A DNA stretch of 64,000 nt, from assembly GCA_041650615.1 (NCBI GenBank), contig JBAZKU010000001.1, positions 386,360 to 450,359 on the forward strand. Reading direction: 5' to 3'. The position numbers and the translations under genes are program-made. This document shows, in pieces, positions 1,912-55,262 of this stretch (position 1 is its first letter; each line of letters starts with the position of its first letter). The stretch comes from Minisyncoccota bacterium (GTDB lineage Bacteria > Patescibacteriota > Minisyncoccia > Phycocordibacterales > UBA9973). Below the pieces are notes generated by a model. The model ran no database searches. It was not told where the DNA came from and worked only from the letters and a program-made list of their open reading frames with translations.

Positions 1912-3837
1912 TTAGTTTTTTATTCCCAACTTTGCTTCGTCTCTTTTCTTCGGTATTATTCCATGCGCGATAATTATCTTATCATACTCATCTTGCTCTA
2001 GGGTTTCAACTTCAATAAGTTTAACAGCAATCGCGTCAAGCGCTTTTTTGTGTTCAGTTAAAACTTTCTCGGCTGATTTTATACCATCATTTATGATTCT
2101 GGAAACTTCAGCATCAACTTTTGTGGAAACTGTTTCAGAATATCCTTCTTCTCCTCTCATCTCTCCCCAATTTAATTTGCCTCCCTCCCCAACTAAACTA
2201 ATCGGACCGATTAAATCCGACATCCCCCAACGAGTGACCATGGCGCGAGCTAAATTCGTAGCCACTTGCAAATCACTTGAAGGTCCGGTAGTAATATCGC
2301 CAAAAACCATTTTTTCGGCAACATATCCGCCGAGGGACATTGCAATATCATCAATAAATTCTTTTTTGGACTGAAGCCGTCTATCTTCTAGGGGCAATTT
2401 TAGAGTATACCCCCCAGCGTTGCCACGAGCAATAATAGATACTTTGTGCACCGGGTCAGCATTCGGCAAAACAGATGCAACTATGGCATGTCCTGCCTCA
2501 TGATATGCGGTAATTTCTTTTTCTTTCTTGGAAAGTAAGTGGCTTTTTCTTTCAGGACCAAGCATTACTTTTTCAATAGCGCGAATCAGATCAAATTGAA
2601 AAACTTTCTTACGATTTTCCCGCGCCGCCAAAATGGCTCCTTCGTTCATTAAAGAATATAAATCAGCGCCGGAAAATCCAGGCGTTCGTTCGGCAATCAA
2701 TTTTAAATTAACATCTTCAGCTAATGGTTTTAATTTTGAATGAATTTCCAAAATTTCTTCGCGGTCTATGCGGTCCGGCAAATCTAGTAATACTTTCCTA
2801 TCAAAGCGTCCGGGACGAATAAGAGCCGGATCAAGCACATCTGGTCTATTGGTAGCCGCCATCACAATCACTTTTTCGTTGGGCTCAAAGCCGTCCATCT
2901 CAACTAAAATTTGGTTTAGGGTTTGTTCACGCTCGTCATTTCCTCCCCCAAATCCGCCTCCACGAGTACGCCCGATTGCATCAATTTCATCCATAAAGAT
3001 AATGGCAGGCGCGGATTTTTTGGCCATCTTGAAAAGATCACGCACTCGAGACGCCCCTACTCCAACAAACATTTCCACAAATTCGCTTCCGGATAAATGG
3101 AAAAATGGCACTATCGCTTCTCCTGCTACAGCACGCGCCAATAATGTTTTACCTGTTCCCGGAGCTCCGGTTAAAATTACTCCTTTGGGAATTCTAGCTC
3201 CTATATCCAAAAACTTTTTCGGATTTTTCAGAAAGTCTACAATTTCCTTCAATTCTTCTTTTGCTTCTTTACATCCGGCAACGTCTTTAAAAGTTACTTT
3301 ATTGTTTTTATCATTCGGGTCGGTAATACGAGCTTTGGATTGGCCGAAAGTAAATGCTTGCATACCCGCGCCTTTTACCTGGCGGGAAAGATACCAAAAG
3401 AAAAAGATTATGAAAAGAATCGGCAAAAGAAAAGGCAAGATATTCACCATCCAATACCAAAATCCGCTTTCATTTTTTATTTCTATGCTCGTTGCCGCTA
3501 AAACTTCCGGTTTTACTCCATAATTAAAAAGGGTTTGTGAAAGAGAAGATTCTGTTTCTTTTTTAGAAATTTTTATCGTATCGTCCTTATAGGTAATAGT
3601 CAAATTTTCTCCTTCAACTACAATTCCCTTCACCTCCCCGGCTGAAACGCTTTTAGCTAAATCGGAAATAGAAACATCAGGTATGGTCTTAGAAGTATCA
3701 GCTATTACCAAATAAAGCGCCGTAATGACCATAAAAATCAAAATAGCTCCAAGGATATTGCCCGAAAATTTAGGTGTTTCCTTTTTCTTTTTGCCTTTAT
3801 TTTTTGGCTCTTTTTGATTTAAAAAATTAAAATCCAT
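1912..3837 (-). CDS. ftsH: ATP-dependent zinc metalloprotease FtsH
   Basis: N-terminal TM segments, AAA Walker [19 protein letters not shown], zinc site HEAGHA. Confidence 0.93.
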
Positions 3838-4156: not shown

Positions 4157-4558
4157 TTGTGGAGATGGGGGGAAATGAGCCCCCGTGCAGAAGGTTTCTG
4201 CAAAAAGATCTACATGCTTAGCGCGCTTTTTGTTTTTAATTGAAAAACTTAAAAACGAGCCAAATATTTTTCAATCGATTCCCTTTGTTTTGGAAAAAAG
4301 CCAGGACTTCTTTTTTCCTATCCCGATAATATTATGCCCAACTCTCATATATCGGAAGTCTATGAGAAGGACATCAGCTTACGCCGAAGCGGAAACTGAA
4401 GCGAAAGCAAAGTCCGCCGAACCGAAGTAAGGAGAAACAATTGCTCTGACTTTAGAAGCTAATTTTGCAATTAACATTTGAACGAATTTTAATGAGATTA
4501 CATTCATTCTCAACATGCATCTTTGCAAGTAGACCCACTGTCTATGCCTTGCATCCCC
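4157..4558 (-). ncRNA. ssrA: tmRNA (SsrA), candidate
   Basis: 12 nt downstream of the smpB stop on the same strand; 5' GGGGAUG pairs with 3' CAUCUCC-A giving the G3:U70 alanine identity wobble; 5' region resembles the E. coli tmRNA tRNA-like/PK1 region (GCAUGUUGAG vs GCAUGCCGAG); T-arm GGGGG-CUCAUUU-CCCCC; internal frame ends ...ADFAFASVSASA-stop; length about 400 nt. Confidence 0.6.
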
Positions 4559-6968: not shown

Positions 6969-7166
6969 ATGAAAGGAATGAAAACAAATAAGTCATATTC
7001 AAAGAGGTTAAAACTTACAAAGAATGGAAAAACGATTTCTCGAAAGCCGGGTTTTAATCACTTTAATGCGAAACAATCGCGCACCCAGCAATTAGCCGGT
7101 CATAAGAGGCAAGCTTTTTTGATCAAAAATAAACCAAAGAGTCACTTATTACCATTTTCAGCCTAA
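6969..7166 (+). CDS. rpmI: 50S ribosomal protein L35
   Basis: MKTNKSYSKRLKLTKNGK, basic 65 aa, infC-rpmI-rplT order. Confidence 0.85.
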   Translation: MKGMKTNKSYSKRLKLTKNGKTISRKPGFNHFNAKQSRTQQLAGHKRQAFLIKNKPKSHLLPFSA

Positions 7167-7172
7167 GGCTGA

Positions 7173-7188
7173 TCCGCCCTTGGCGGAA
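7173..7188. repeat. GC hairpin motif TCCGCCCTTGGCGGAA (family 4), rpmI-rplT junction
   Basis: Same 16-mer with 1 mismatch at 21155 and 26460; variants at 40264 and 54585. Confidence 0.5.
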
Positions 7189-8192: not shown

Positions 8193-9557
8193 TCAAAAAG
8201 AAAGCAAAACACTATCCCCCAATTGAGGCGCGAACGCTTGAATCCCCAAATTATCCCGGATTTTTTGAGTCAGAAACATTGCAGACTTTGGTTCGCCCAT
8301 AACTACAAAAACTTTTTTAACTGTATCTCCCATATCTTCAACAAAACGCAGAAGTCCATCTCTATCTTTATGCCCTGAATATCCTAAAATAATAGCAACA
8401 TGCGCTTTTACATTTACATCTTCTCCGTTGATATGAACTCTTTTTATTCCTTCCTTTATTAATCTTCCCAAACTGCCTATAGATTGATATCCTGTAAGTA
8501 AAATAGTGTTATTTGGATCCGGTAAATAATGTTTCTCGTGATGCACTATTCTCCCCCCAGAAGACATACCCGAACCAGCTATAATTATTTTGGGATTTGG
8601 CGCATTATTAATCATTTTTGAGTCTTCCGATTGCAGAGTAGAATGAAGACCGGGGAAATCAAATAAAAATTTATCTTTGGACAATACTTTCTGGGCTGTT
8701 TCGTTAAAATAATTTTTGTATTGCTTGAAAATTTCCGTTAAACGAATAGCCAAAGGAGAATCAAAAAAAATAGACATTATCGGAATACGACTATTTTCAA
8801 CCAAATCATTCAGTTCAAATAAAAGTTCTTGCGAACGCTCAAGTGAGAAAGTAGGCACAATAAGTGTTCCTTTTCTTTTGTAATTATCCTCTATTATTTG
8901 TTCTAAAAGCTTCTTACGGTCATTTCTAGACTCATGATTTCTATCTCCATAAACGGATTCAATTATTAAATAATCCGCATCGGTAATTTTTTCCGTATCA
9001 GGTAATAATGGAGATGGAGAATTACCTAGATCCCCGGTAAAAAGAATTTTCTTGCCATTATAAATAAATTCAACCATTGCTGAACCTAAAATGTGTCCAG
9101 CGTTTTTGAAAGATACTTCTAAATTAGGGGTTATTTGTATTTTCTCGTGATAATCAAATGAAACCCACTGTTTAAATGTTTTATTTAAATTTTCTTCAGT
9201 ATATATCCTCCCCAAATTAAATTGCTTATTGTTAGATAAAATACCGGCAGTGTCTTCCAGCATCGGACCGGCAAGCGCTTGGGTAGGTTTTGTAGAGTAA
9301 ATTTTTCCATTAAATCCATCATTGATTAATTTTGGAATTCTTCCAATATGGTCTACATGAGCATGAGTAACAAAAAGGATATCTATCTTTCTTGGGTCAT
9401 AAGAAAAAGGTGTCCAGTTGGTGTCATAAGTTACATCTCCTCCTTCCGTAAGTCCACAATCAATTAAGATTTTTTTACTGTCTATCTCCAAAAGAAAATT
9501 CGCGCCCGTAACCGAGCCTGTTCCCCCACAAAATGTTAATTTGGCGGTATTTTGCAT
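8193..9557 (-). CDS. MBL-fold beta-CASP ribonuclease (RNase J/CPSF-like)
   Basis: HAHVDHIGRIP metallo-beta-lactamase motif, DCGL, beta-CASP-like C-terminal region; start set at MQNTAKLTF. Confidence 0.7.
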   Translation of the reverse strand: MQNTAKLTFCGGTGSVTGANFLLEIDSKKILIDCGLTEGGDVTYDTNWTPFSYDPRKIDILFVTHAHVDHIGRIPKLINDGFNGKIYSTKPTQALAGPMLEDTAGILSNNKQFNLGRIYTEENLNKTFKQWVSFDYHEKIQITPNLEVSFKNAGHILGSAMVEFIYNGKKILFTGDLGNSPSPLLPDTEKITDADYLIIESVYGDRNHESRNDRKKLLEQIIEDNYKRKGTLIVPTFSLERSQELLFELNDLVENSRIPIMSIFFDSPLAIRLTEIFKQYKNYFNETAQKVLSKDKFLFDFPGLHSTLQSEDSKMINNAPNPKIIIAGSGMSSGGRIVHHEKHYLPDPNNTILLTGYQSIGSLGRLIKEGIKRVHINGEDVNVKAHVAIILGYSGHKDRDGLLRFVEDMGDTVKKVFVVMGEPKSAMFLTQKIRDNLGIQAFAPQLGDSVLLSF

Positions 9558-9960: not shown

Positions 9961-10017
9961 ATCAGTATTATACGTCTTTCAAGAAAAATTCCCCACACTA
10001 AGTGGAGGATTTTTCTT

Positions 10018-10142
10018 AGGGTTATTTCCGATGTATTACCATAGCTTTATAGCTAGGTGGGTACCAGACGGATAAGACCAAGGTCAAACACGATCGAGGC
10101 TCCCATAAAATATTGTTCTAGGTAATAATCGGAAATAACCCT
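10018..10142. repeat. 15-bp perfect inverted repeat AGGGTTATTTCCGAT/ATCGGAAATAACCCT enclosing 95 nt; candidate structured ncRNA or MITE
   Basis: Read directly; interior holds further small palindromes (AGCTTTATAGCT). Confidence 0.4.
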
Positions 10143-10216
10143 ACTTAAAGTCTATGCCTTTTAAAAAAGTTAGCAACTGGACGAAACAATTTTTTCGTTT
10201 CTGAATTTTTTATTCT

Positions 10217-10801: not shown

Positions 10802-10943
10802 ATTTTTATCTTAGCAGATTTTTAAAAATTATTCAACAAAATACAAAATTGTGCTTTTTTCGGCATACGCAATATTAGATTCGTAAACCACATTCAGGTT
10901 CGAGTGCGAGCCGTGAAAAAGTACTATTTTGTATTTTATGATA

Positions 10944-13703
10944 TTACTGCATCGAAGCATACCTAGCCATGATTTCTTTTTCCACTTCTTCGCGGTCACG
11001 ACCGTATTTTGTATAAGAAAGTTGTTTTAGACTGTCTACAATTTCCTTATTCCCCTCTTCCGGCGGTAGTGTTTTTAGATTAAAAGGTTTTGTCGGTTGA
11101 CCGTTTACCAACATACTCATATAAGCATTATAATTATCCAATTTGGTTATATCTTGAGCACTGAATGTTGGTTTGAATTTTGGCTCTAAGAAATTCGCGT
11201 CTTCCGTCCCAACGCGAAACACTGCCATTGAACCGACATTGCCAAAAACCGCATTCTTAATATTTTCCCCTAATTGAGTAATATACTGATGAGCAATATT
11301 AAGCGATAGTCTGTATTTTCTGGCCTCGGATAAAATGGAAGCGATAGAGTCGGTTGTTACGTTTTGAAATTCGTCTATGTATAGATAAAAATCATTTATC
11401 GGTTTGCCGAACATATCCACTCGGGAAAGCGCGGCCATTTGAATTTTACCTACAAGCACTAGACCAATCAAATTTGCATTAATATCGCCTAATCTGCCTT
11501 TGGAAAGATTCACCAGTAAAATTTTTTTCTCATCCATAATCTTTCTAAAGTTAAAAACCGAATTTTGTTGGAGCACCACCGGACGCATAATGTCATTGGA
11601 AATAAAATTATCAAATTTTGAAGAAATATAAGGTACAAAGTTTGCCAAGGATTGATCCCCGGTCGTTTGTTCGGCTGAAGTCCAGAACTGTTTTATAATA
11701 GGATTTTTACAGCGGGCTAATTTCAAATCACGAAATTCTTTATCTGCTAAAACTCTGGTAATCTCCAATAAAGTTGAGCCAGATTCGGGATCTTCCATAA
11801 CCAGAAAAGCACTATTGCGAAAATATTGCTCAAACATCGCCCCACCGCCGATTTTCATATCAAAAAGTTTATTAAAGATACCCATCATTTCATTTACCAC
11901 AAATGTTTTTTGCTCCGGATATTTCGGGTCATATTCCAGCATATTCAGCCCCATCGGTCGTATGGTATAAGCCGGGTCAAAATAAATCACATCATCCATG
12001 CGTTTTTTGGGGATACGGGACAAGATAGTTTGAATATCCGTCCCGTGAGGATCAATATAACAACAACCGTCGCCGTTTTTTATATCCTGCGTTATCATAT
12101 TAAGCATAATATTCGTTTTACCGGTTCCGGTTTGGCCAATAGTATAAAAATGCCTCATGCGATCTTCTCGCGACATATGAATAACAGTATCTTTTCCCCT
12201 GTAACTATTTACTCCTAGCACTATTCCCTCTTGTCCCATCTCTAACGGGGCGGGAGCAATGCCAGCTTTTGCTTCTTTTAATTGTGGCTGGCTTCCTATA
12301 CCGACAGGAAAATGAAACACGGAAGAAAGTTCTTTTAAATTCATAGGCAAAATCTTATCTCCAGAAAATGTGCGGTATGAAAAATCGTGGAAAAGTTCTT
12401 TCAACCCACTGTCGGAAATTCTCTCAAACATGAAAGAGTTGCTAGTTGATTCGGTAAATTGATTGAAAGAAGACTCTATTTCCGCCAGTATCATTAAGGC
12501 CCTTTCTTTTGTCGCAGCGGAAGCCACAACTCGAATATTTGCTTTCATGATTGTGCTTTTCATCTTATTGCCTATTTTTTCTATTGCGCCTTCATCTACC
12601 GCTTTTCTGCCTGCCACATATTTTTCCTCGGTCTTTTCTTTTTTCTTCACACCAAAAAGCAAATCTTTTGAAGCTTTCAAAAACGCCTTATTAAATTTAT
12701 AAAAATTATCCGCTGCATGTTTTACTGACATCCCTCCTTTAACATCATCTAAAATCAAATGAAATTCATCTATAAATTTCTCGCCAGCAGGAGCTATCAC
12801 CAGTTGAATGGCAGCACCTTCTCCTTTGGTTTCTAATTTCGAAAAAACATTGAGTAAAGTATTCATTGGATCGTGATCAATTTGATCATAAGTTTTTATA
12901 GGGAGAACAGAACGCTCTGAAAAATTAGCATAAGCTCCGATAGAGACACCATTCTCATTAAAAATATTATAATCATCTGTCACTTCACGGATTTTCGCAT
13001 CATGATAAAAAGCTAGAATTTGTTTCTCAAAAAGCGAGATATTTTTATTTGGTATAGCAGCATAAACTATCACCTCATCCGAGTTATTACTAAGCGCTAT
13101 TTCTAGCGTATAATAATTTTCTTTTTCATTATTTTTTCCTTCCGAGATAGATTGCATTCCTGCATAAAACTGTTCCATAGCACCGATAAATTCTTTAAAA
13201 TTTTTCTGTTTGTCGACTTCTTCCTTGGGCGGGGGAAGAGTTATTTCAAAAAGGGTCATATGAAGAGATTTAAAAAGAGGAGTCCCTTCTTTCAAATCAA
13301 ATATTTTACCTGTTTTTAAATATTGAATTAATACTCGGTGAAAATCATCATCTATGTGCGGATTCTCCATTGTTTCTACTATGGATAATGCATTTCTAAT
13401 TCCTTTAGTTATCACAATACCCAAAAGCTCTTCCATTTTACTATCATGAGTTTCGGGTTTAAGTGCAAGCACTATGCTTTCCGCTTCCTTTCTATTTATA
13501 ATGTTGTCTTTGTGGATAATTTCTTCTATAGGTTTTTCTTTATATTCTCCTATAATATCTTTCACCGCATTTTCATTCGCACGTTCAAGTTTCCCTTTGT
13601 CTATGAGTTCTTGTTCTCTTTTCGCAACATGAGCGCGCAAATAATCCAACTCTTCTTCCGGAGTTTTAAATTTTGGCGCTTCGCTCAAAAACGACTTTTC
13701 CAT
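10944..13703 (-). CDS. FtsK/HerA-superfamily P-loop ATPase, T4SS VirB4/VirD4 (TraC/TraG)-like, with a 500-aa soluble N-terminal region
   Basis: Walker A GQTGTGKT, IDPHGT, Walker B LYIDEFQN, ARKYRLSLNIAHQYITQL (T4SS ATPase RK...Q..QL motif); start set at MEKSFL (the upstream in-frame stretch is translation of a GC-rich repeat). Confidence 0.55.
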   Translation of the reverse strand: MEKSFLSEAPKFKTPEEELDYLRAHVAKREQELIDKGKLERANENAVKDIIGEYKEKPIEEIIHKDNIINRKEAESIVLALKPETHDSKMEELLGIVITKGIRNALSIVETMENPHIDDDFHRVLIQYLKTGKIFDLKEGTPLFKSLHMTLFEITLPPPKEEVDKQKNFKEFIGAMEQFYAGMQSISEGKNNEKENYYTLEIALSNNSDEVIVYAAIPNKNISLFEKQILAFYHDAKIREVTDDYNIFNENGVSIGAYANFSERSVLPIKTYDQIDHDPMNTLLNVFSKLETKGEGAAIQLVIAPAGEKFIDEFHLILDDVKGGMSVKHAADNFYKFNKAFLKASKDLLFGVKKKEKTEEKYVAGRKAVDEGAIEKIGNKMKSTIMKANIRVVASAATKERALMILAEIESSFNQFTESTSNSFMFERISDSGLKELFHDFSYRTFSGDKILPMNLKELSSVFHFPVGIGSQPQLKEAKAGIAPAPLEMGQEGIVLGVNSYRGKDTVIHMSREDRMRHFYTIGQTGTGKTNIMLNMITQDIKNGDGCCYIDPHGTDIQTILSRIPKKRMDDVIYFDPAYTIRPMGLNMLEYDPKYPEQKTFVVNEMMGIFNKLFDMKIGGGAMFEQYFRNSAFLVMEDPESGSTLLEITRVLADKEFRDLKLARCKNPIIKQFWTSAEQTTGDQSLANFVPYISSKFDNFISNDIMRPVVLQQNSVFNFRKIMDEKKILLVNLSKGRLGDINANLIGLVLVGKIQMAALSRVDMFGKPINDFYLYIDEFQNVTTDSIASILSEARKYRLSLNIAHQYITQLGENIKNAVFGNVGSMAVFRVGTEDANFLEPKFKPTFSAQDITKLDNYNAYMSMLVNGQPTKPFNLKTLPPEEGNKEIVDSLKQLSYTKYGRDREEVEKEIMARYASMQ

Positions 13704-13748
13704 AATTATAATTATAACATTAATTTTAAAAATTCGTCGAAGGTGTAG

Positions 13749-13866
13749 TTTTTTCGAGACATTGCGCAGGAGCTTAGAAAATAAAGAAGGTAATCCGACT
13801 ATTATTTTCTTGAGCGACGAGCATAGCAATCCGCAAGCTTGCGGATATGCGTGTCGAGAAAAAATT
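13749..13866. repeat. GC-rich repeat family 5, copy Y (ATTGCGCAGG ... GACGAGCATAGCAA with a 44-nt internal insert; CCGCAAGCTTGCGG palindrome)
   Basis: Shares CATTGCGCAGG and GACGAGC-GAGCATAG blocks with 48632-48660. Confidence 0.45.
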
Positions 13867-13882
13867 ATACCGAGAAAGAATT

Positions 13883-14650
13883 TTAAATCTGTGTCAATAT
13901 CTCCGGTTCGCCATCAGTAATCAAAATAGTGTGTTCAAAATGCGCGCTTTTTTTGCCATCGGCGGTGTGGAAAGTGTATCCATCTTTATCCAAAATCACG
14001 TTTTTTGTCCCATTATTCAACATTGGCTCTATGGCTATAACCATACCAGGTACAAGTTTTGCCCCTGTGCCAGCTTTCCCAAAATTTGGAATATAAGGAT
14101 CTTCATGTATGGCGCGTCCGACGCCGTGCCCGGATAAAACCTCTACAATGCCGTATCTATGCGGACGAACAAAACTTTCTATGCTATTGCTTATGTCTCC
14201 TACTCTGTATCCCGCTTGGGCTGCTCTAATACCCATCATCAAAGCTTTTTCAGTGATTTCTATAAGTTTTGCAGAAGAAGCACTGACTTCGCCCACAGGT
14301 ACAGTAATAGCCATATCAGTAAAAAGTCCGTTATGTTTCAATCCTAAATCCAAAGAAACAATATCGCCTTCTTTTAAAATTTTATTTTTATTTGGAATGC
14401 CATGAACCACTTCATCATTAACAGAAACACATAAAGAAGCCGGGTATGGGAAATCCGCCCCTTCCGGACGATAGTTTAAAAACGCCGGTTCATCATCCAT
14501 ATCTTTTATTAATTTTTCTACATATTTATCCAATTCCCAAGTGGAAATTCCCGGTTTTACTATTTCTTTAACCTTATATAAAACAGTAGCCAATCTTTTG
14601 CCTCCTTCTCGCAATATTTTTATTTCTTCCGGGGTTTTGATTATTATCAT
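13883..14650 (-). CDS. map: methionine aminopeptidase type I
   Basis: Typical Map fold motifs (metal ligands within GHGVGRAIHE and HFEHT). Confidence 0.88.
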   Translation of the reverse strand: MIIIKTPEEIKILREGGKRLATVLYKVKEIVKPGISTWELDKYVEKLIKDMDDEPAFLNYRPEGADFPYPASLCVSVNDEVVHGIPNKNKILKEGDIVSLDLGLKHNGLFTDMAITVPVGEVSASSAKLIEITEKALMMGIRAAQAGYRVGDISNSIESFVRPHRYGIVEVLSGHGVGRAIHEDPYIPNFGKAGTGAKLVPGMVIAIEPMLNNGTKNVILDKDGYTFHTADGKKSAHFEHTILITDGEPEILTQI

Positions 14651-15327
14651 TTTATTACCGTTCCTAAAAACTTCTCGCCATTTAAACACTTGGCTAAATT
14701 ATCAATCGGCTTGCCATTCATTATTACCACCTCTATTCCCTCTTTTTCCGCCATTTCCGAAGCAATGGGGTCAAATGGCGAATTAAGACCCGGATTCCAG
14801 TCTTTTGGAATTAATTTCCTATATTCTGCCCAAGAAATTTTTTCAATTTTTTGGGCGCTTCCATTTATTTTTGGGTCAGAATCATATACATAATCCGTAT
14901 TGGATAAATTAATTATTTTCTTAGCGCCTAATGTTTTTGCTCCCTCAACCGCGTCCCAATCTGTACTGCGTCCGGGACCAAAAGCTGCCCCAATAATTAT
15001 CGGTTTATCAAAAGATAATTTCTCGGATAAATTAAGAATGACCTTTGGATGGGCATATTCGCCAAAGATAACTCTCAGTAATTCGGCATTTAATTTTAAA
15101 GAGGCTATCCCTATCCAATCCAAATCTTCATCGGAAGGATTAGTAAGTTCTTTGGCAACATCTTGATATTTTCTGCAAATTTTTCCACCACCGGTTATAA
15201 TTACAAATTTCTTGCCTTTGGCAACATGGGAAAGAATCAGAGATTTAAAATCCTTTAAAAAATTCAAGTCTAAATTTTCTGGGATAATAAGCGAACCACC
15301 AAGTGAAATTACTATCGTTTCTTCCAT
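14647..15327 (-). CDS. amino-acid-kinase family protein, likely short (archaeal-type) UMP kinase
   Basis: ISLGGSLI, IITGGG, GAAFGPGRSTD; 226 aa; sits between adk and map. Confidence 0.5.
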   Translation of the reverse strand: MEETIVISLGGSLIIPENLDLNFLKDFKSLILSHVAKGKKFVIITGGGKICRKYQDVAKELTNPSDEDLDWIGIASLKLNAELLRVIFGEYAHPKVILNLSEKLSFDKPIIIGAAFGPGRSTDWDAVEGAKTLGAKKIINLSNTDYVYDSDPKINGSAQKIEKISWAEYRKLIPKDWNPGLNSPFDPIASEMAEKEGIEVVIMNGKPIDNLAKCLNGEKFLGTVIK

Positions 15328-15913: not shown

Positions 15914-15995
15914 ATAGAAAGATTACACAATTTTGGTGAAAAAATCAACCCACACACTTATTTTGGCTATACAAAATAAGTGTGTGGGTCAAGAT

Positions 15996-20777: not shown

Positions 20778-21149
20778 TTAAATTACTTCCGGGGCTAAAG
20801 AAATTATTTTCTGAAATCCTTTTTCAGCAAGTTCTCTTGGAATCGGTCCAAAGACACGTCCAGCTTTTGGATCAAGTTTCCCTTTTTCTAATAAAACTAC
20901 GGCATTGTCGTCAAAACGAATATAAGACCCATCTTTTCTCCTGTAAGCATTTCTGGTACGCACTACCACAGCTTGATGCACATCCTTTTTCTTTACATCT
21001 TTTCTCGGACTAGCAATCTTTACAGAAATAACAACCAAATCTCCAAGGGTTGCATATCTTTTTTTTGAACTGCCTAAAATCTTGAACACTTTGCCTACAG
21101 TGCCTCCTGCATTATCTGTTATTTTTACCAATGTTTCTGTTTGAATCAT
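20778..21149 (-). CDS. rplN: 50S ribosomal protein L14
   Basis: MIQTETLVKITDNAGG. Confidence 0.92.
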   Translation of the reverse strand: MIQTETLVKITDNAGGTVGKVFKILGSSKKRYATLGDLVVISVKIASPRKDVKKKDVHQAVVVRTRNAYRRKDGSYIRFDDNAVVLLEKGKLDPKAGRVFGPIPRELAEKGFQKIISLAPEVI

Positions 21150-21154
21150 ACCTG

Positions 21155-21170
21155 TCCGCCCTTGGCGGAA
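21155..21170. repeat. GC hairpin motif TCCGCCCTTGGCGGAA (family 4), 5 nt upstream of the rplN start
   Basis: Exact 16-mer; gene-strand reading TTCCGCCAAGGGCGGACAGGT-ATG. Confidence 0.5.
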
Positions 21171-26081: not shown

Positions 26082-26543
26082 CTAAAGCATCTTTACATCA
26101 ATATCCACTCCTGAAGGAAGAGATAGGTTAGTAAGCGCCTCAACTGTTTTTGGATTTGGATTTATAATATCAATTAATCTTTTGTGAACTCTTATTTCAA
26201 ATTGTTCTCGAGTATTTTTGTAAATAAAAGATGCGCGATTAACTGTGTATTTTTTAATTTCGGTCGGCAATGGTACTGGTCCGATTATTTCCGCATCATA
26301 ACGCATAGCCGTGTCTATAATTTGTTTGACCGAGCTATCAAGAATTTTACTTTCATACGCTCGTACACGTATGCGAAGTATTACTTTACTTTCTTCTCCG
26401 CTCACTCGGGCTGATTTCTTTTCTTTAAGAGGAGAAATCTTCTTTCCGTCTGAGGAGGATCCGCCCTTAGCGGAAACTTTTTTCACCTTCTCTTTATCAG
26501 TCAAGATTTTTGGCTTTTTTGTTTTTGTTTCTTTAGTTGCCAT
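26082..26543 (-). CDS. rpsJ: 30S ribosomal protein S10; the annotated 50-aa N-terminal extension is doubtful
   Basis: Core S10 begins near SKVILRIRVRAYESKILD; the extension contains the family-4 hairpin 26460-26475, so the true start may be the downstream in-frame GTG (V of VSGEES), about 20 nt 3' of the hairpin. Confidence 0.8.
   Translation of the reverse strand: MATKETKTKKPKILTDKEKVKKVSAKGGSSSDGKKISPLKEKKSARVSGEESKVILRIRVRAYESKILDSSVKQIIDTAMRYDAEIIGPVPLPTEIKKYTVNRASFIYKNTREQFEIRVHKRLIDIINPNPKTVEALTNLSLPSGVDIDVKML
26460..26475. repeat. GC hairpin motif TCCGCCCTTAGCGGAA (family 4), tuf-rpsJ junction
   Basis: 15/16 identity to the 7173 and 21155 copies. Confidence 0.5.
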
Positions 26544-40241: not shown

Positions 40242-40328
40242 ATTTCTCTTTTCAATCTTAGGTTGGTCCCGCCTTCAGCGGAAAAAACCTATCTTATAAT
40301 AATAGGTTAATTATACACGAGAATTTCG

Positions 40329-47079: not shown

Positions 47080-47224
47080 ATACGTTGCTATTTATACCAA
47101 AAAAGATAGATAAAAGCCACTTTAAAAAATTATAAAAATTAAAAGATTTTAAGAGTCGTGTTGGTCCCCTGTCCTTATGTCCCCGAGGGCGAAGGCTCAG
47201 AAATCTTTTGAATTTTTGTAATTT

Positions 47225-47776
47225 CTATTTGTAATCCGGGCTTTTTTCTGTTATGCCAGCTTTATGGTTTACCAATCTGGCAAAAGCATAAAGGAGACTT
47301 GAAAGACGATTTAAATATGCCAGAGTGGATTCTTTGACAGATACTTTGTTTTCTTCTTTTACTTCCACTACTCTCCTTTCCGCCCTGCGAGAAATAGTGC
47401 GAGAGATATCAAATAGCGTTGCTAATTCCGTCCCCCCGGAAATAAAGAAGGTTTTTATAGGTGGAAGTTCTTTTTCTATGGAATCAATAATGATTTCTAT
47501 TTCTTTTATCTTCTCTTCATCAATAGACATAGATGCCCCAGCGAGTTCTGCTTGAATGATAAATAAATTTTTCTGGATATCGTGAACTGCTTGACCCATC
47601 TCTAATTTGCCGATAAGAATTTTCTCTTTTTTAGCTTTTACTTTACAAAAACCTAAAAAGGAATTTATTTCATCCAGTGAGCCGAGAGCTTCGGCGATAA
47701 CCGAACTTTTGGAAATACGCTGGTCGCATCCGAATGTTTTAGTTGTTCCTTTGTCCCCCTTTCTGGTATAGAGCAT
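47225..47776 (-). CDS. ATP:cob(I)alamin adenosyltransferase, PduO/MMAB type
   Basis: MLYTRKGDKGTT start and family length. Confidence 0.7.
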   Translation of the reverse strand: MLYTRKGDKGTTKTFGCDQRISKSSVIAEALGSLDEINSFLGFCKVKAKKEKILIGKLEMGQAVHDIQKNLFIIQAELAGASMSIDEEKIKEIEIIIDSIEKELPPIKTFFISGGTELATLFDISRTISRRAERRVVEVKEENKVSVKESTLAYLNRLSSLLYAFARLVNHKAGITEKSPDYK

Positions 47777-48460: not shown

Positions 48461-48485
48461 AAGTTAATTATAGCAAATTATTTTG

Positions 48486-48567
48486 TGCCCAGGGGGGGAC
48501 TCGAACCCCCATGCCTCTCGGCGCTACCACCTCAAGGTAGTAAGTCTACCAATTTCTCCACCTGGGC
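48486..48567 (-). tRNA. tRNA-Leu (GAG), type II
   Basis: Long variable arm, anticodon loop TTGAGGT, T-arm GGGGG-TTCGAGT-CCCCC. Confidence 0.75.
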
Positions 48568-48595: not shown

Positions 48596-48672
48596 ACTAA
48601 AAAACTCGTCGCGGGCGTACTTTTTAGAAAGCATTGCGCAGGCTGACGAGCCGAGCATAGTAAATTTTCAGC
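48596..48672. repeat. GC-rich repeat family 5, copy X (CATTGCGCAGGCTGACGAGCCGAGCATAG)
   Basis: 19-nt core CGCAGGCTGACGAGCCGAG identical (reverse complement) to 50427-50445. Confidence 0.5.
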
Positions 48673-48719
48673 AGAAAATTATGCGCGGTTTATAAAAAGT
48701 ATGCCAAATAAAGAGTTTT

Positions 48720-49118
48720 TTAGTTTTCTACTTTTTCTATTTCTTCTTCCGAGACAATTGAGCGCAATTTTCGGCGAACGTCTTTCACCGCTTTAGCGCG
48801 AACATAGTAAAGTTTAGACTTGCGAGCGCGAGATTTTTTAGTTATTTCAATTTTATCAATAGCTGGAGAATAAAGCGGAAAAATTCTTTCCACCCCGACA
48901 CCCGAAGCAACTCTTCGGACTGTAAAAGTCCCGCCGATTTCCGTACCATGTTTTCTGGCTAGTACTATGCCTTCAAAGGCTTGCAAACGCGTTTTACCTT
49001 TTTCGTCTAAAACTTTGGACCAAACGCGCACAGTATCCCCTGAGTTGAAATCAAGTTTTTTTCTTTCTTCCACGTCAACTGAAGTAAGTTTAGTTTTATC
49101 TATTTTATTTCCTGCCAT
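48720..49118 (-). CDS. rplS: 50S ribosomal protein L19
   Basis: GDTVRVWSKVLDEKGKTRLQAFEGIV. Confidence 0.9.
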   Translation of the reverse strand: MAGNKIDKTKLTSVDVEERKKLDFNSGDTVRVWSKVLDEKGKTRLQAFEGIVLARKHGTEIGGTFTVRRVASGVGVERIFPLYSPAIDKIEITKKSRARKSKLYYVRAKAVKDVRRKLRSIVSEEEIEKVEN

Positions 49119-49312
49119 AATCGTTTTAATCTAACATAAACGAATTTCAAAGGCAAATTTGGGATTTTCTATAAAAATTCGTCTTATGCATTACGCATAT
49201 TATACATCATATTGGCAATAAATTAATTGGGCAGTCAAATTGACTTTTAAACTTATAAAGAATATCGTTAAATTAAATAAATCAATGTTCTTTAAAAGAA
49301 AAGGAGGGAAAA

Positions 49313-50074
49313 ATGAGTACAAATATCTTGAGTGTACAGAGAATTAGGGAAAGGCCAACTAAAATAAGAACTGTAACAATTGAGTACAATAACTATTTAT
49401 CTACCGAGCCTGAAGAACTGATCAGGCTTAACAACGAATATAAGCGACACGTTCCTGAGTTGCTTGCTTTCGTGAAAAAGAATGAAGGGAATTTTGTGAA
49501 ACTTCTTTTCACTAGAATGAACCCTAATGGTTCAATAATCAGGAATATTGTTAAAGGGATTCCCCTCGAAGTTCAAAATACCAGCTTTAGCTTTTTCACA
49601 AGTGAAACTTTAGATAAGAGTGTTTTCTATGTAGATCCTCAAAAAATATTTGTCAGAACGGATAATGTTTTGGGATTTATCCCATCATTACCTAAAACTG
49701 AAATATATCCTTTTGAGAATAATTCCGAAAAAACTCTTGATTTTCTCAAATTTCTGAGAAAAACTAAAAAACTGTTGCTATCTTGCGTTGGAACTGTTCA
49801 CGCTGCCACAATTCATTGGTGGTATAACAAGAAACACAAGCTTTTTCGTGAAGGAGATTATAGAGTTGAGGGATTCATTCGTAAGGTGAACAAATCCAAT
49901 TTTGAATATGACCACTTCCGCACTATTGCTTATATCAACAAGGAAGATTGGTACGTTGATGTGATACCACGTTATGAGATTGACCGATTCATAGCGCCGG
50001 ATAGAGTTCCACGTAAAATAGTAGTTGCGTTCGGTGTCCATCATCATATAAATCCTTGTGATGACGATGAGTGA
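49313..50074 (+). CDS. hypothetical protein (253 aa, no recognisable family)
   Basis: Strong canonical SD AAAGGAGGG 7 nt before the ATG, unlike most genes here. Confidence 0.45.
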   Translation: MSTNILSVQRIRERPTKIRTVTIEYNNYLSTEPEELIRLNNEYKRHVPELLAFVKKNEGNFVKLLFTRMNPNGSIIRNIVKGIPLEVQNTSFSFFTSETLDKSVFYVDPQKIFVRTDNVLGFIPSLPKTEIYPFENNSEKTLDFLKFLRKTKKLLLSCVGTVHAATIHWWYNKKHKLFREGDYRVEGFIRKVNKSNFEYDHFRTIAYINKEDWYVDVIPRYEIDRFIAPDRVPRKIVVAFGVHHHINPCDDDE

Positions 50075-50123
50075 GGGAAAAATTCTAGGGTATTTACACA
50101 ATTTACTGTGCAGATACCCTTTT

Positions 50124-50936
50124 TTATTTTAGATTTATTATTTTTTTGAACTCAAGAGGTAAAGGAGATTCTACTTTTATTGTTTTGTCTTTTAAATTTT
50201 TAAATTCTATGGACTTCGCATGAAGCGCCAATCTTTTTAATCCTTTTGGGCAAGATCCATTCGGATTATAAAGAGAATCACAGGCTACTGGATGGTTTAT
50301 ATATTTCATATGCACGCGGATTTGATGCGTCCGTCCGGTTTTTGGATGAATTTCCAGATAAGAGAATCGCTCCGGCATTTTCTTTTTTGGGTCGCTGTCT
50401 CCGCGTGCTCGCGGAGCGCTGCCTCTCGGCTCGTCAGCCTGCGAGACACCCAAAAAAGGAACTACCGGAGCGGTAAAAAAGCGTTTCAAAACTCTGTACT
50501 CGGTAATTGCTTCGCGAAGTTCTCCCCTTACCCCGCGGCCAGCCAGATGTCGGCGAAAATCTTTCGGACTTCGCCCAATTGGTTTATTTATCGTGCCGTG
50601 GTCATTTTTTACAAATCCGGAAACAATAGAATGATAAGTCTTTTTTATTTCTCTTCCCTTAAATTGATTTTTAAAAAATTCATAAGCTTTTTGGTTTTTC
50701 ACCAAAAGCAAGACTCCAGAAGTTTCTTTATCTAGCCTGTGAACTATTCCTGGTTTTTTTATTTCTTTGCCTTCAAAAAAAATCGGCTCGCCTACATTTT
50801 TTATTTTGGGGTATTTTTTAACAACCCAATCGGTAATCGTTTCTTCTTTACTGCGCCCATCCGGATGCACAGAAACACCAGAGGGTTTATCTATGGCTAA
50901 AATATTAGAATCTTCGAATAAAATTTTAATTCTCAT
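50124..50936 (-). CDS. RluA-family pseudouridine synthase carrying an in-frame 25-aa GC-rich insertion
   Basis: HRLDKETSGVLLL, TGRTHQIRVH; insertion GVSQADEPRGSAPRARGDSDPKKKM encoded by 50383-50457. Confidence 0.8.
   Translation of the reverse strand: MRIKILFEDSNILAIDKPSGVSVHPDGRSKEETITDWVVKKYPKIKNVGEPIFFEGKEIKKPGIVHRLDKETSGVLLLVKNQKAYEFFKNQFKGREIKKTYHSIVSGFVKNDHGTINKPIGRSPKDFRRHLAGRGVRGELREAITEYRVLKRFFTAPVVPFLGVSQADEPRGSAPRARGDSDPKKKMPERFSYLEIHPKTGRTHQIRVHMKYINHPVACDSLYNPNGSCPKGLKRLALHAKSIEFKNLKDKTIKVESPLPLEFKKIINLK
50383..50457. mobile_element. GC-rich palindromic element, family 5 copy Z: 75 bp, 10-bp TIRs TTTTTTGGGT/ACCCAAAAAA, inside the rluA-like ORF in frame
   Basis: Internal palindromes CTCCGCG/CGCGGAG and GTCTC/GAGAC; local GC far above the genome background. 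Confidence 0.5.
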
Positions 50937-54550: not shown

Positions 54551-54622
54551 ACCCCCACACTTATATTTGCAATACAACTTCGTTGCGCGCCTTTGGCGCT
54601 TTGCAAATATAAGTGTGGGGGT
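54551..54622. promoter_or_regulatory. 22-bp perfect inverted repeat ACCCCCACACTTATATTTGCAA/TTGCAAATATAAGTGTGGGGGT around a GC hairpin GCGCGCCTTTGGCGC, in the divergent ruvX / 54657 promoter region
   Basis: Read directly; the GTGTGGGGG motif recurs at 56976 and, reverse-complemented, at 9991. Confidence 0.5.
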
Positions 54623-55005: not shown

Positions 55006-55090
55006 GGAGGCGTGCGTGAGCGGTTGAAACGAGCGGTCTTGAAAACCGCCATGGCGAAAGCCATCGTGAGTTCGAATCTCACCGCCTCCG
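55006..55090 (+). tRNA. tRNA-Ser (UGA), type II
   Basis: Anticodon loop CTTGAAA, long variable arm, T-arm GTGAG-TTCGAAT-CTCAC. Confidence 0.75.
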
Positions 55091-55262
55091 CTTTGAGCCC
55101 CGCGAAAAGCGGAGGCGAGCAAGCAAACTGCTTTGCTTGCGTGTGAGATGAGAACGACGGAATGTGAAATTTTCAGTAGAAAATTTCCATGAGTCGGTGG
55201 CTAGGCCAAAATTTTACGACGGGAAAATTTTGAGTCGAAGCCGAACCACCGCCTCCGCAAAC

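Follow-up and report, generated by a model that had tools for sequence, protein, structure and literature searches.

The rluA locus and three copies of one element

The subject of this report is a palindromic DNA element found in a 64-kb stretch (hereafter, the window) of the genome of a member of Candidatus Paceibacterota, within the candidate phyla radiation. One copy lies in frame inside a gene for a pseudouridine synthase of the RluA/RluD family (rluA), and two others occupy intergenic positions (Table 1). A previous reading of the window from its sequence alone had described the copy in rluA as a 75-bp stretch (50383-50457, 25 codons) bounded by TTTTTTGGGT and ACCCAAAAAA, containing the internal palindromes CTCCGCG/CGCGGAG, and read as ...FLGVSQADEPRGSAPRARGDSDPKKKM... 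just before the motif TGRTHQIRVH of a 270-amino-acid open reading frame (ORF). The palindromes and the reading frame were found as described, but the size had been underestimated: inverted arms of 25 nt, 88% complementary, occupy 50368-50392 and 50448-50472, bringing the element to ~105 nt or 35 codons.

The 19-mer at the core of this copy, CGCAGGCTGACGAGCCGAG, has exactly two occurrences in the window, at 48637-48655 on the plus strand and at 50425-50443 on the minus strand, where the number expected by chance is 0 (100 shuffles, with up to 3 mismatches allowed). The recurrence of the core in an intergenic block, as proposed by the sequence-only reading, is thus exact and not a chance match. 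A covariance model, built from ~100 members of the family described below and then run on the window, detects exactly three copies (84.4, 82.6 and 28.7 bits), which sit after rplS (48622-48717, 84.4 bits, E=6.4e-28), in rluA (50362-50458, 82.6 bits, E=2.9e-27) and after map, a methionine aminopeptidase-like gene (13798-13883, E=2.1e-7). The last of these, previously suspected to be a third copy, also aligns with the other two. Both intergenic blocks were correctly recognized but are longer than had been thought, since they too possess outer arms.

Copy 2, whose outer arms are AAAAAACTC...GAGTTTTTT, lies between the rplS ORF (48720-49118, minus strand) and the gene for tRNA-Leu (48485-48567, minus strand), and the sense strand of its core is antisense to both. 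The methionine aminopeptidase-like gene (13883-14689, minus strand) supplies the stop codon at which copy 3 begins; this copy has a predicted folding energy of -56 kcal/mol (z=-7.5). A sharp contrast in base composition with the AT-rich surroundings (the window has a GC content of 35.9%) had been noted for these elements; it holds for the copy in rluA alone, with 58% GC against a window mean of 36%, the copy beside rplS having 38-43%.

Table 1. Element copies in the window with their parts and host gene, and positions of copies inside genes at other loci
Feature	Position	Strand	Basis or remark
Host gene, RluA/RluD-family pseudouridine synthase, 270 aa	50124..50936	-	ORF; Pfam PF00849; source names
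Element copy 1, full palindrome, 105 nt / 35 codons	50368..50472	-	In-frame peptide ...TAPVVPFLGVSQADEPRGSAPRARGDSDPKKKMPE...
P2b hairpin of copy 1, GGCT-GACG-AGCC	50428..50439	-	Within the shared 19-mer (50425-50443)
P3 hairpin of copy 1, CTCCGCG-AGCA-CGCGGAG	50399..50416	-	Read in the sequence
Element copy 2, intergenic	48599..48721	+	From rplS stop codon to just before tRNA-Leu
Element copy 3, intergenic, P2 expanded to a long AT-rich hairpin	13729..13884	+	Alignment with the other two copies
Copies in UvrD/PcrA	Always just before ILYRANFQSRALEEA
Copies in TsaD	Always before PRPMLxSKNFDFSFSGLKTAV		Subtypes A and B, both orientations
Copies in Tgt			Includes two copies in one gene
Other in-frame hosts			IleRS-like synthetase, RecG-like helicase, Dus, Fmt

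A dispersed family with a conserved centre and variable arms

Related elements were collected by scanning metagenomes with RCAGGCYGACGRGCCGAGMR, which returned at least 120 stretches; family counts given here refer to the matches listed in that scan. After removal of chance hits in GC-rich contigs, ~100 distinct copies were kept, from contigs with GC contents between 29 and 60%, three of which, at the high-GC end, encode proteins of Candidatus Kaiserbacteria. The repeat is therefore dispersed, as had been anticipated, with three copies in the window and ~100 more at unrelated metagenome loci. Handles of the form L### denote these and other loci, mostly metagenome contigs, and P#### denotes RluA homologues. 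A scan of a viral collection with a 17-mer gave 28 matches, all in GC-rich phages, without family context and attributable to chance.

The copies share one architecture, in which an outer stem encloses the helix P2, a short junction, the helix P3 and a second junction, and is closed by its return strand. P2 has GGCY/RGCC as its upper helix, capped by a GACG loop and separated from the lower helix by a GCA/GA internal loop, whereas P3 is a 7-bp stem that carries an AGCA loop in 80 of 100 copies and shows compensatory changes at all seven pairs. The search pattern fixed part of P2, but placed no constraint on P3, on the lower helix of P2 or on the AGCA loop. RNAalifold also finds P2 and P3, with compensatory changes at 10 of 14 pairs, and in P2b alignment columns 23/28 form a covarying pair within the family (T-A in 52 copies, C-G in 45). 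In the structure as named, 97.9% of cells are paired, against 67.0% in shuffles and 31-48% in a control where the partners were slid by 1-3 columns; the covariation score is 0.769 as compared with 0.197 for shuffled alignments, and none of 500 shuffles reached it. Folding of 220-nt segments, intended to set the ends of the element, over-extended the stems and yielded no boundaries. Elements of this family are non-coding palindromic repeats of ~100-155 nt.

The junctions distinguish three subtypes, A, B and C, the copy in rluA being of type B. Type C conserves an outer stem with an internal loop over many contigs; window copies 2 and 3 have this outer stem, and the junctions of copy 2 are those of type A. 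Outer arms are generally long and nearly always self-complementary within a copy, but differ between copies. In a few cases (L128, L199, L221) identical long arms are found amid different flanks, indicating that the arms can travel with the element. Around 11 of 21 Kaiserbacteria-type copies appear by eye to be flanked by GCGAG(CG) direct repeats, a motif count placing them on both sides in 3 of 21. These repeats, observed in L121, L138, L143, L196, L197, L200, L217, L222, L224 and L229, resemble two CGAG repeats within the core (GACGAGCCGAGC) and may represent a target site or a cleavage motif.

The genes adjacent to the copies are unrelated housekeeping genes, and clustering of the ORFs beside the copies, in search of a candidate transposase, gave no recurrent partner ORF. 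Rfam 15 has no family matching any of the three window copies at gathering thresholds, with copies 2 and 3 giving chance-level matches only when searched up to E=10, and its self-cleaving ribozyme, intron and riboswitch families gave no covariance-model match. A hammerhead-like reading of CUGACGAG was rejected, as the U of the motif covaries in a helix and no GAAA core follows.

Copies read through inside housekeeping genes

Twenty-five of the metagenome copies lie within ORFs of at least 250 amino acids that read straight through them (the host genes are listed in Table 1). Queries of a protein database with the element's four open reading frames brought up the peptide GVSQAD(E/G)PRGSAPRARGDSDP within peptide deformylases, one TsaD and one UvrD/PcrA helicase, and the peptide of the other strand, GSLSPRARGALPLGSSACETP, within one UvrD and one TsaD. 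The core occurs in genes in both orientations, ~11 times sense and ~16 times antisense, and the sense copies use the QAD(E/G)P frame in every case. In low-GC contigs, type B is found almost always in genes and types A and C mostly between them. Type B is open in most of its six frames (36, 24, 21, 34, 28 and 38 of 38 copies), whereas the junctions of types A and C contain TAG codons.

These data bear on the idea that the insert might be an intervening sequence, either an intron or a segment excised by RNase III, so that the mature RluA would lack the loop. In the mRNA, each copy could fold into a long and almost perfect hairpin, on which an RNase specific for double strands might plausibly act, and conservation of the core at the nucleotide level could be understood in the same way. 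However, all 25 listed copies in long ORFs keep the frame and lack stop codons, which would be needless were the RNA excised; it is specifically the coding subtype that has lost stops in most frames, and frame use is biased among the sense copies. Moreover, no group I or group II intron signal was found with Rfam, and the intergenic copies cannot be introns. We therefore regard excision from the transcript as very improbable.

The insert in RluA and its orthologues

In an alignment of 120 RluA homologues (63-100% identity), about half bridge ...LKRF and KF(T/S)YLE with just 2-7 residues, and the remainder have inserts of up to 39 residues at exactly the same place, belonging to several sequence classes. 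The rluA loci are syntenic (RuvX, tRNA-binding protein, PilM ... RluA ... L19), which identifies the genes as orthologues. Many of the syntenic genes lack the loop at this position, the outcome expected from the sequence-only reading, and others have unrelated palindromic inserts. At the empty-site locus L005 the sequence is KRF-KISTN-KFTYLE, relative to which copy 1 represents a net gain of ~34 residues. A rough neighbour-joining tree of the homologues mixes filled with empty states, and P0078 shows an internal deletion between repeated AAAAATTTT tracts. Contigs of a genome collection, searched by RluA alignment with generic patterns, gave distant RluA genes only (at most 45% identity), and the covariance model found no element copy at the few of these loci that were searched with it.

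Other palindromic families use the same site. The rluA genes of L237 (1501-2289) and L238 (1501-2220) are 80% identical in nucleotide sequence and differ by a clean palindromic insertion of 75 nt, whose arms are TGTACACAAAATTTT/AAAATTTTGTGCACA and whose family is not that of the window element. This insert is the commonest one at the hot spot, with the peptide NFSSCALPRVRGGTLGDKNF (L116 4043-4876, L237; P0008, P0017, P0040 and others), and its peptide is nearly identical across RluA proteins that share merely 65-70% identity. It lacks P2, but the possibility that this class is the present element minus P2 was rejected, as the order of its motifs is not colinear with the family. The RluA of L007 (P0002) has two further insertions, PARSHDSLGAGG and SAPALEIKNKVKMAD, and the same locus contains at 3346-3444 a degenerate copy of the family (34.8 bits) overlapping the start of this gene.

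Could the insert be an ordinary, vertically inherited loop of RluA, whose likeness to the intergenic blocks is a coincidence or an assembly artefact? The close orthologues P0002, P0004 and P0007 do have the same loop. Nevertheless, this explanation is refuted by the exact 19-mer match where none is expected, by the presence of identical peptide and DNA in unrelated genes and organisms, and by the absence of the loop from many orthologues. The identical RluA protein occurs at the same locus in independent ENA, JGI and NCBI assemblies, on contigs of up to 598 kb, thereby excluding an assembly artefact.

Placement of the insert in a surface loop, also proposed earlier, agrees with structural data. 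The AlphaFold model of the window RluA has a mean predicted local distance difference test score (pLDDT) of 86.9, and the inserted residues, ~156-188, are modelled with low confidence (pLDDT 49-57) and without secondary structure, between the beta strands 144-155 and 189-198. Solved RluD structures align in two blocks (query residues 2-154 and 191-266) and have 1-2 residues between them. For RluA specifically, the modelled position of the insertion is compatible with the protein fold.

Probable pairing at the DNA level and possible inversion of the core

The 75-nt core is 98.7% identical between the rluA genes of the window and L007, with 96% identity at third codon positions, as compared with 81.7% and 64%, respectively, for the rest of the gene. 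Nucleotide identity of the core is thus maintained, or restored by homogenisation, to a degree that exceeds any protein constraint. Within the variable stems, G·T is about as rare as A·C mismatches, and the numbers of G·U pairs in folds of the two strands are similar (315 vs 279). Together with the roughly equal use of both orientations in genes, this suggests complementarity of a Watson-Crick duplex, i.e. a DNA palindrome, and we infer that pairing is kept at the level of DNA and not by selection on one transcribed strand. Replication offers a known way of keeping and lengthening perfect arms, through template-switch correction of quasi-palindromes.

Inverted repeats on either side allow the core to flip in place with the reading frame intact. 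The rluA gene of L003 has the same core in the opposite orientation between different, perfect 28-bp arms. When the core of the window rluA is inverted in silico, the ORF remains open and reads ...PFLGRCLRVLAERCLSARQPARHPKKK..., giving the peptide GRCLRVLAERCLSARQPARHP, which is of the type seen in the opposite-orientation orthologues P0024 and P0101. In-place inversion would thus explain such orthologues, and opposite orientations at one site need not reflect independent insertions. The TsaD copies of L169 and L223 have arms that are homologous when compared in the reference frame of the gene, and cores that are inverted. A simple flip was rejected for this pair, as flipping the core of L223 does not give the reading frame of L169b and small indels in the arms must also be involved.

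Intergenic copies and the terminator question

Each of copies 2 and 3 starts at a stop codon and has runs of A and T at its borders, the T-run of copy 2 being followed by tRNA-Leu; many type A and C copies in metagenomes are similarly bounded by an A-run and a T-run. An orthologous copy is found directly after rplS in L003, in the same relative orientation as copy 2, while the corresponding position is taken by a different hairpin family in L005 and by a plain terminator hairpin in L116. Judging from these positions and flanks, the intergenic copies probably act as, or replace, a bidirectional terminator hairpin. The hairpin after rplS in L005 (~12910-13010) is homologous to a second hairpin-repeat family present in the window at 47123-47227, with long AT-rich arms and a GC-rich core (CTGAGCCTTCGCCCTCGGGGACATAAGGACAGGGGACCAACACGACTC, minus strand). 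In L116, just after rplS, an ORF at 8841-9524 gives a faint LAGLIDADG homing-endonuclease signal, the plain terminator being at the position of the element.

It might be argued that the family is in fact a functional nucleic-acid module, such as a structured RNA or single-stranded DNA motif serving as a terminator, processing signal or binding site of a factor peculiar to these bacteria, of which the copies in genes are by-products. The start of intergenic copies at stop codons, with their A- and T-run flanks, would be natural for such a module, as would the retention of a copy after rplS in both the window and L003, but the replacements in L005 and L116 show that the element at this position is not indispensable. 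Likewise, the very strong covariation and the loops that stay invariant over 29-60% GC, together with a core conserved far above the synonymous sites of its host gene, point towards function; yet G·U is not in excess over A·C, and no Rfam family matches. Folding favours the sense strand in 88 of 103 copies, but this advantage comes from the shared core and so is not independent evidence, and with ~11 sense and ~16 antisense copies in genes about half are not transcribed in the sense direction by their host gene. On balance we consider a functional module of this kind unlikely.

A probable coding-tolerated palindromic repeat

We favour the explanation that the element is a selfish palindromic repeat, tolerated within coding sequence and dispersed in Parcubacteria, in the manner of the Rickettsia palindromic elements (RPEs) discussed below, and would put its probability at roughly 0.75. 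The observation made in the sequence-only reading is confirmed, and its interpretation as a mobile palindrome is supported; mobility and selfishness are suggested by the distribution of the copies and by their presence or absence among orthologues. Each copy is a long hairpin, with variable self-complementary arms and a conserved asymmetric three-way junction at its tip. Intergenic copies sit directly after stop codons, between an A-run and a T-run. According to this model, type B, which has lost stop codons in most frames, would survive inside genes wherever its length keeps the frame and a surface loop is hit, and a copy in a gene, as in RluA, would then be transcribed and translated as a disordered loop of ~35 residues. 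The arms would be maintained at the DNA level, for instance by the template-switch correction mentioned above.

Several points weigh against this explanation. No transposition event, autonomous partner or transposase was found among the loci examined, target-site duplication is not evident in the one close pair of filled and empty sites (L237/L238), and the copy number in the source genome refers to 64 kb of it. A centre that is conserved between arms that vary is the opposite of the pattern in a transposase-recognised MITE (miniature inverted-repeat transposable element), and the repeated occupation of the same loops of RluA, TsaD and UvrD is not obviously predicted by random insertion followed by selection. 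The strong covariation, the conserved loops and the rplS-side copy kept in two genomes also fit a functional RNA or DNA module. As to the role proposed for intergenic copies, a terminator scan calls none of them, with a scanner that models simple hairpins only (loops of 3-8 nt).

One may speculate further that the three-way-junction core is the part recognised by an as yet undescribed system of Parcubacteria for mobilisation or maintenance, for which a hairpin-specific single-strand DNA enzyme or an RNA-mediated copier would be candidates. We offer this only tentatively and think it rather doubtful as a whole. If true, such a system would place coding-compatible hairpins in particular loops of conserved RNA- and DNA-acting enzymes, with a core that is near-invariant over 29-60% GC, and the family would not be passive junk but a novel kind of genetic element, able to flip and recurring at particular sites.

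Comparison with known repeats

The element had been likened to the REP/MITE type. That it is a dispersed palindromic element was borne out, but its closest analogue is the RPE and not the REP (repetitive extragenic palindromic) sequence, and its conserved centre and variable arms are unlike those of a typical MITE. REP/BIME sequences (BIME, bacterial interspersed mosaic element) are extragenic, with REP units of 20-40 nt with a conserved tetranucleotide and a co-occurring gene for a REP-associated tyrosine transposase (RAYT). The present elements resemble them as GC-rich palindromic repeats in which structure is conserved above sequence, but are 100-155 nt long and often inside genes, which places them outside REP. 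By analogy with REP, it is conceivable that the family is mobilised as a DNA hairpin by an HUH enzyme.

Among bacterial MITEs we compared QMITE1 and QMITE2 of Coxiella (PMC5896051), the Correia elements of Neisseria, and the pneumococcal RUP, BOX and SPRITE repeats (PMC3049150). Like these, the elements are short, lack a transposase gene, have inverted arms and occur in multiple copies, and some MITEs overlap ORFs or, as SPRITE does, resemble terminators. MITEs are, however, defined by conserved terminal inverted repeats that match an autonomous insertion sequence and by target-site duplications, whereas here the termini are the least conserved part, no partner insertion sequence was found beside the copies, and conserved terminal repeats are thus lacking. 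The sole trace of a duplication is the GCGAG repeats next to about half of the Kaiserbacteria-type copies. In mitochondrial genes of Nematomorpha (PMC6649704), long near-perfect inverted repeats within functional genes are transcribed and translated, so that hairpin structure and coding sequence are both kept, as in our case. Their arms, though, encode conserved parts of proteins and they have no dispersed shared core, while the addition described here is absent from orthologues.

RPEs (Ogata et al. 2000, via PMC10969869) are repeats of ~150 bp, and many of them occupy unrelated genes in frame, where the protein fold can accommodate them. In both cases, non-coding palindromic repeats of ~100-150 bp are dispersed in the small genome of a host-dependent bacterium, and much of the family is found in frame within housekeeping genes that are unrelated to one another, where it contributes an extra peptide at fold-compatible positions. 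Here, too, the repeat is dispersed and the unrelated genes that carry it in frame keep their ORF. The differences are that the present family belongs to Parcubacteria and RPEs to Alphaproteobacteria; that it has a conserved asymmetric three-way-junction centre with arms differing from copy to copy; that it spans contigs of 29-60% GC and reoccupies the same loops of the same genes in both orientations; and that its intergenic copies are terminator-like and its core can invert in place. The likeness is to RPEs as a functional class, and we do not claim membership in RPE families 1-10.

The literature that could be searched contained no account of the family or of similar elements in these bacteria. 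Palindromic repeats lying in frame within essential genes have hitherto been regarded as a curiosity of Rickettsia, and a comparable and apparently much wider system now appears in the candidate phyla radiation, whose members are also host-dependent and genome-reduced. It provides a concrete source for many unexplained insertions in the proteins of these bacteria, and a warning to annotators and structure predictors that such loops are repeat-derived. A covariance model is ready for genome surveys. How a conserved centre goes together with self-complementary arms that vary, inversion in place and target loops that recur is a mechanistic puzzle.

Other repeats and features of the window

Directly after tRNA-Ser lies a GC-rich structured segment of ~170 nt (55085-55260), bounded by a direct repeat of the 3' end of the tRNA (ACCGCCTCCGC) and containing a P3-like hairpin (GAAATTTTCAGTAGAAAATTTC); it could be an integration scar or another element. 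Two perfect hairpins, at 54551-54622 and 15948-15989, have stems of 22 and 18 bp and the common arm ACCC(C/A)CACACTTAT, and probably represent a third small repeat family or a type of terminator. Long inverted repeats are also present at 10838-10937, where the 22-nt arms are 91% complementary and resemble the GTRCTTTTT arms of the main family, and at 10008-10152, where 25-nt arms (84%) are separated by 95 nt. A short GC-rich hairpin, TCCGCCCTTGGCGGA, is repeated at 7156-7188, 21138-21170, 26443-26475 and 40250-40282, some copies being preceded by a second hairpin, CAGCCTAAGGCTG, and the one at 26443, at least, apparently falls within a coding region. Lastly, Rfam matches a tmRNA gene at 4157-4558 on the minus strand (114 bits), for which ARAGORN gives no call.

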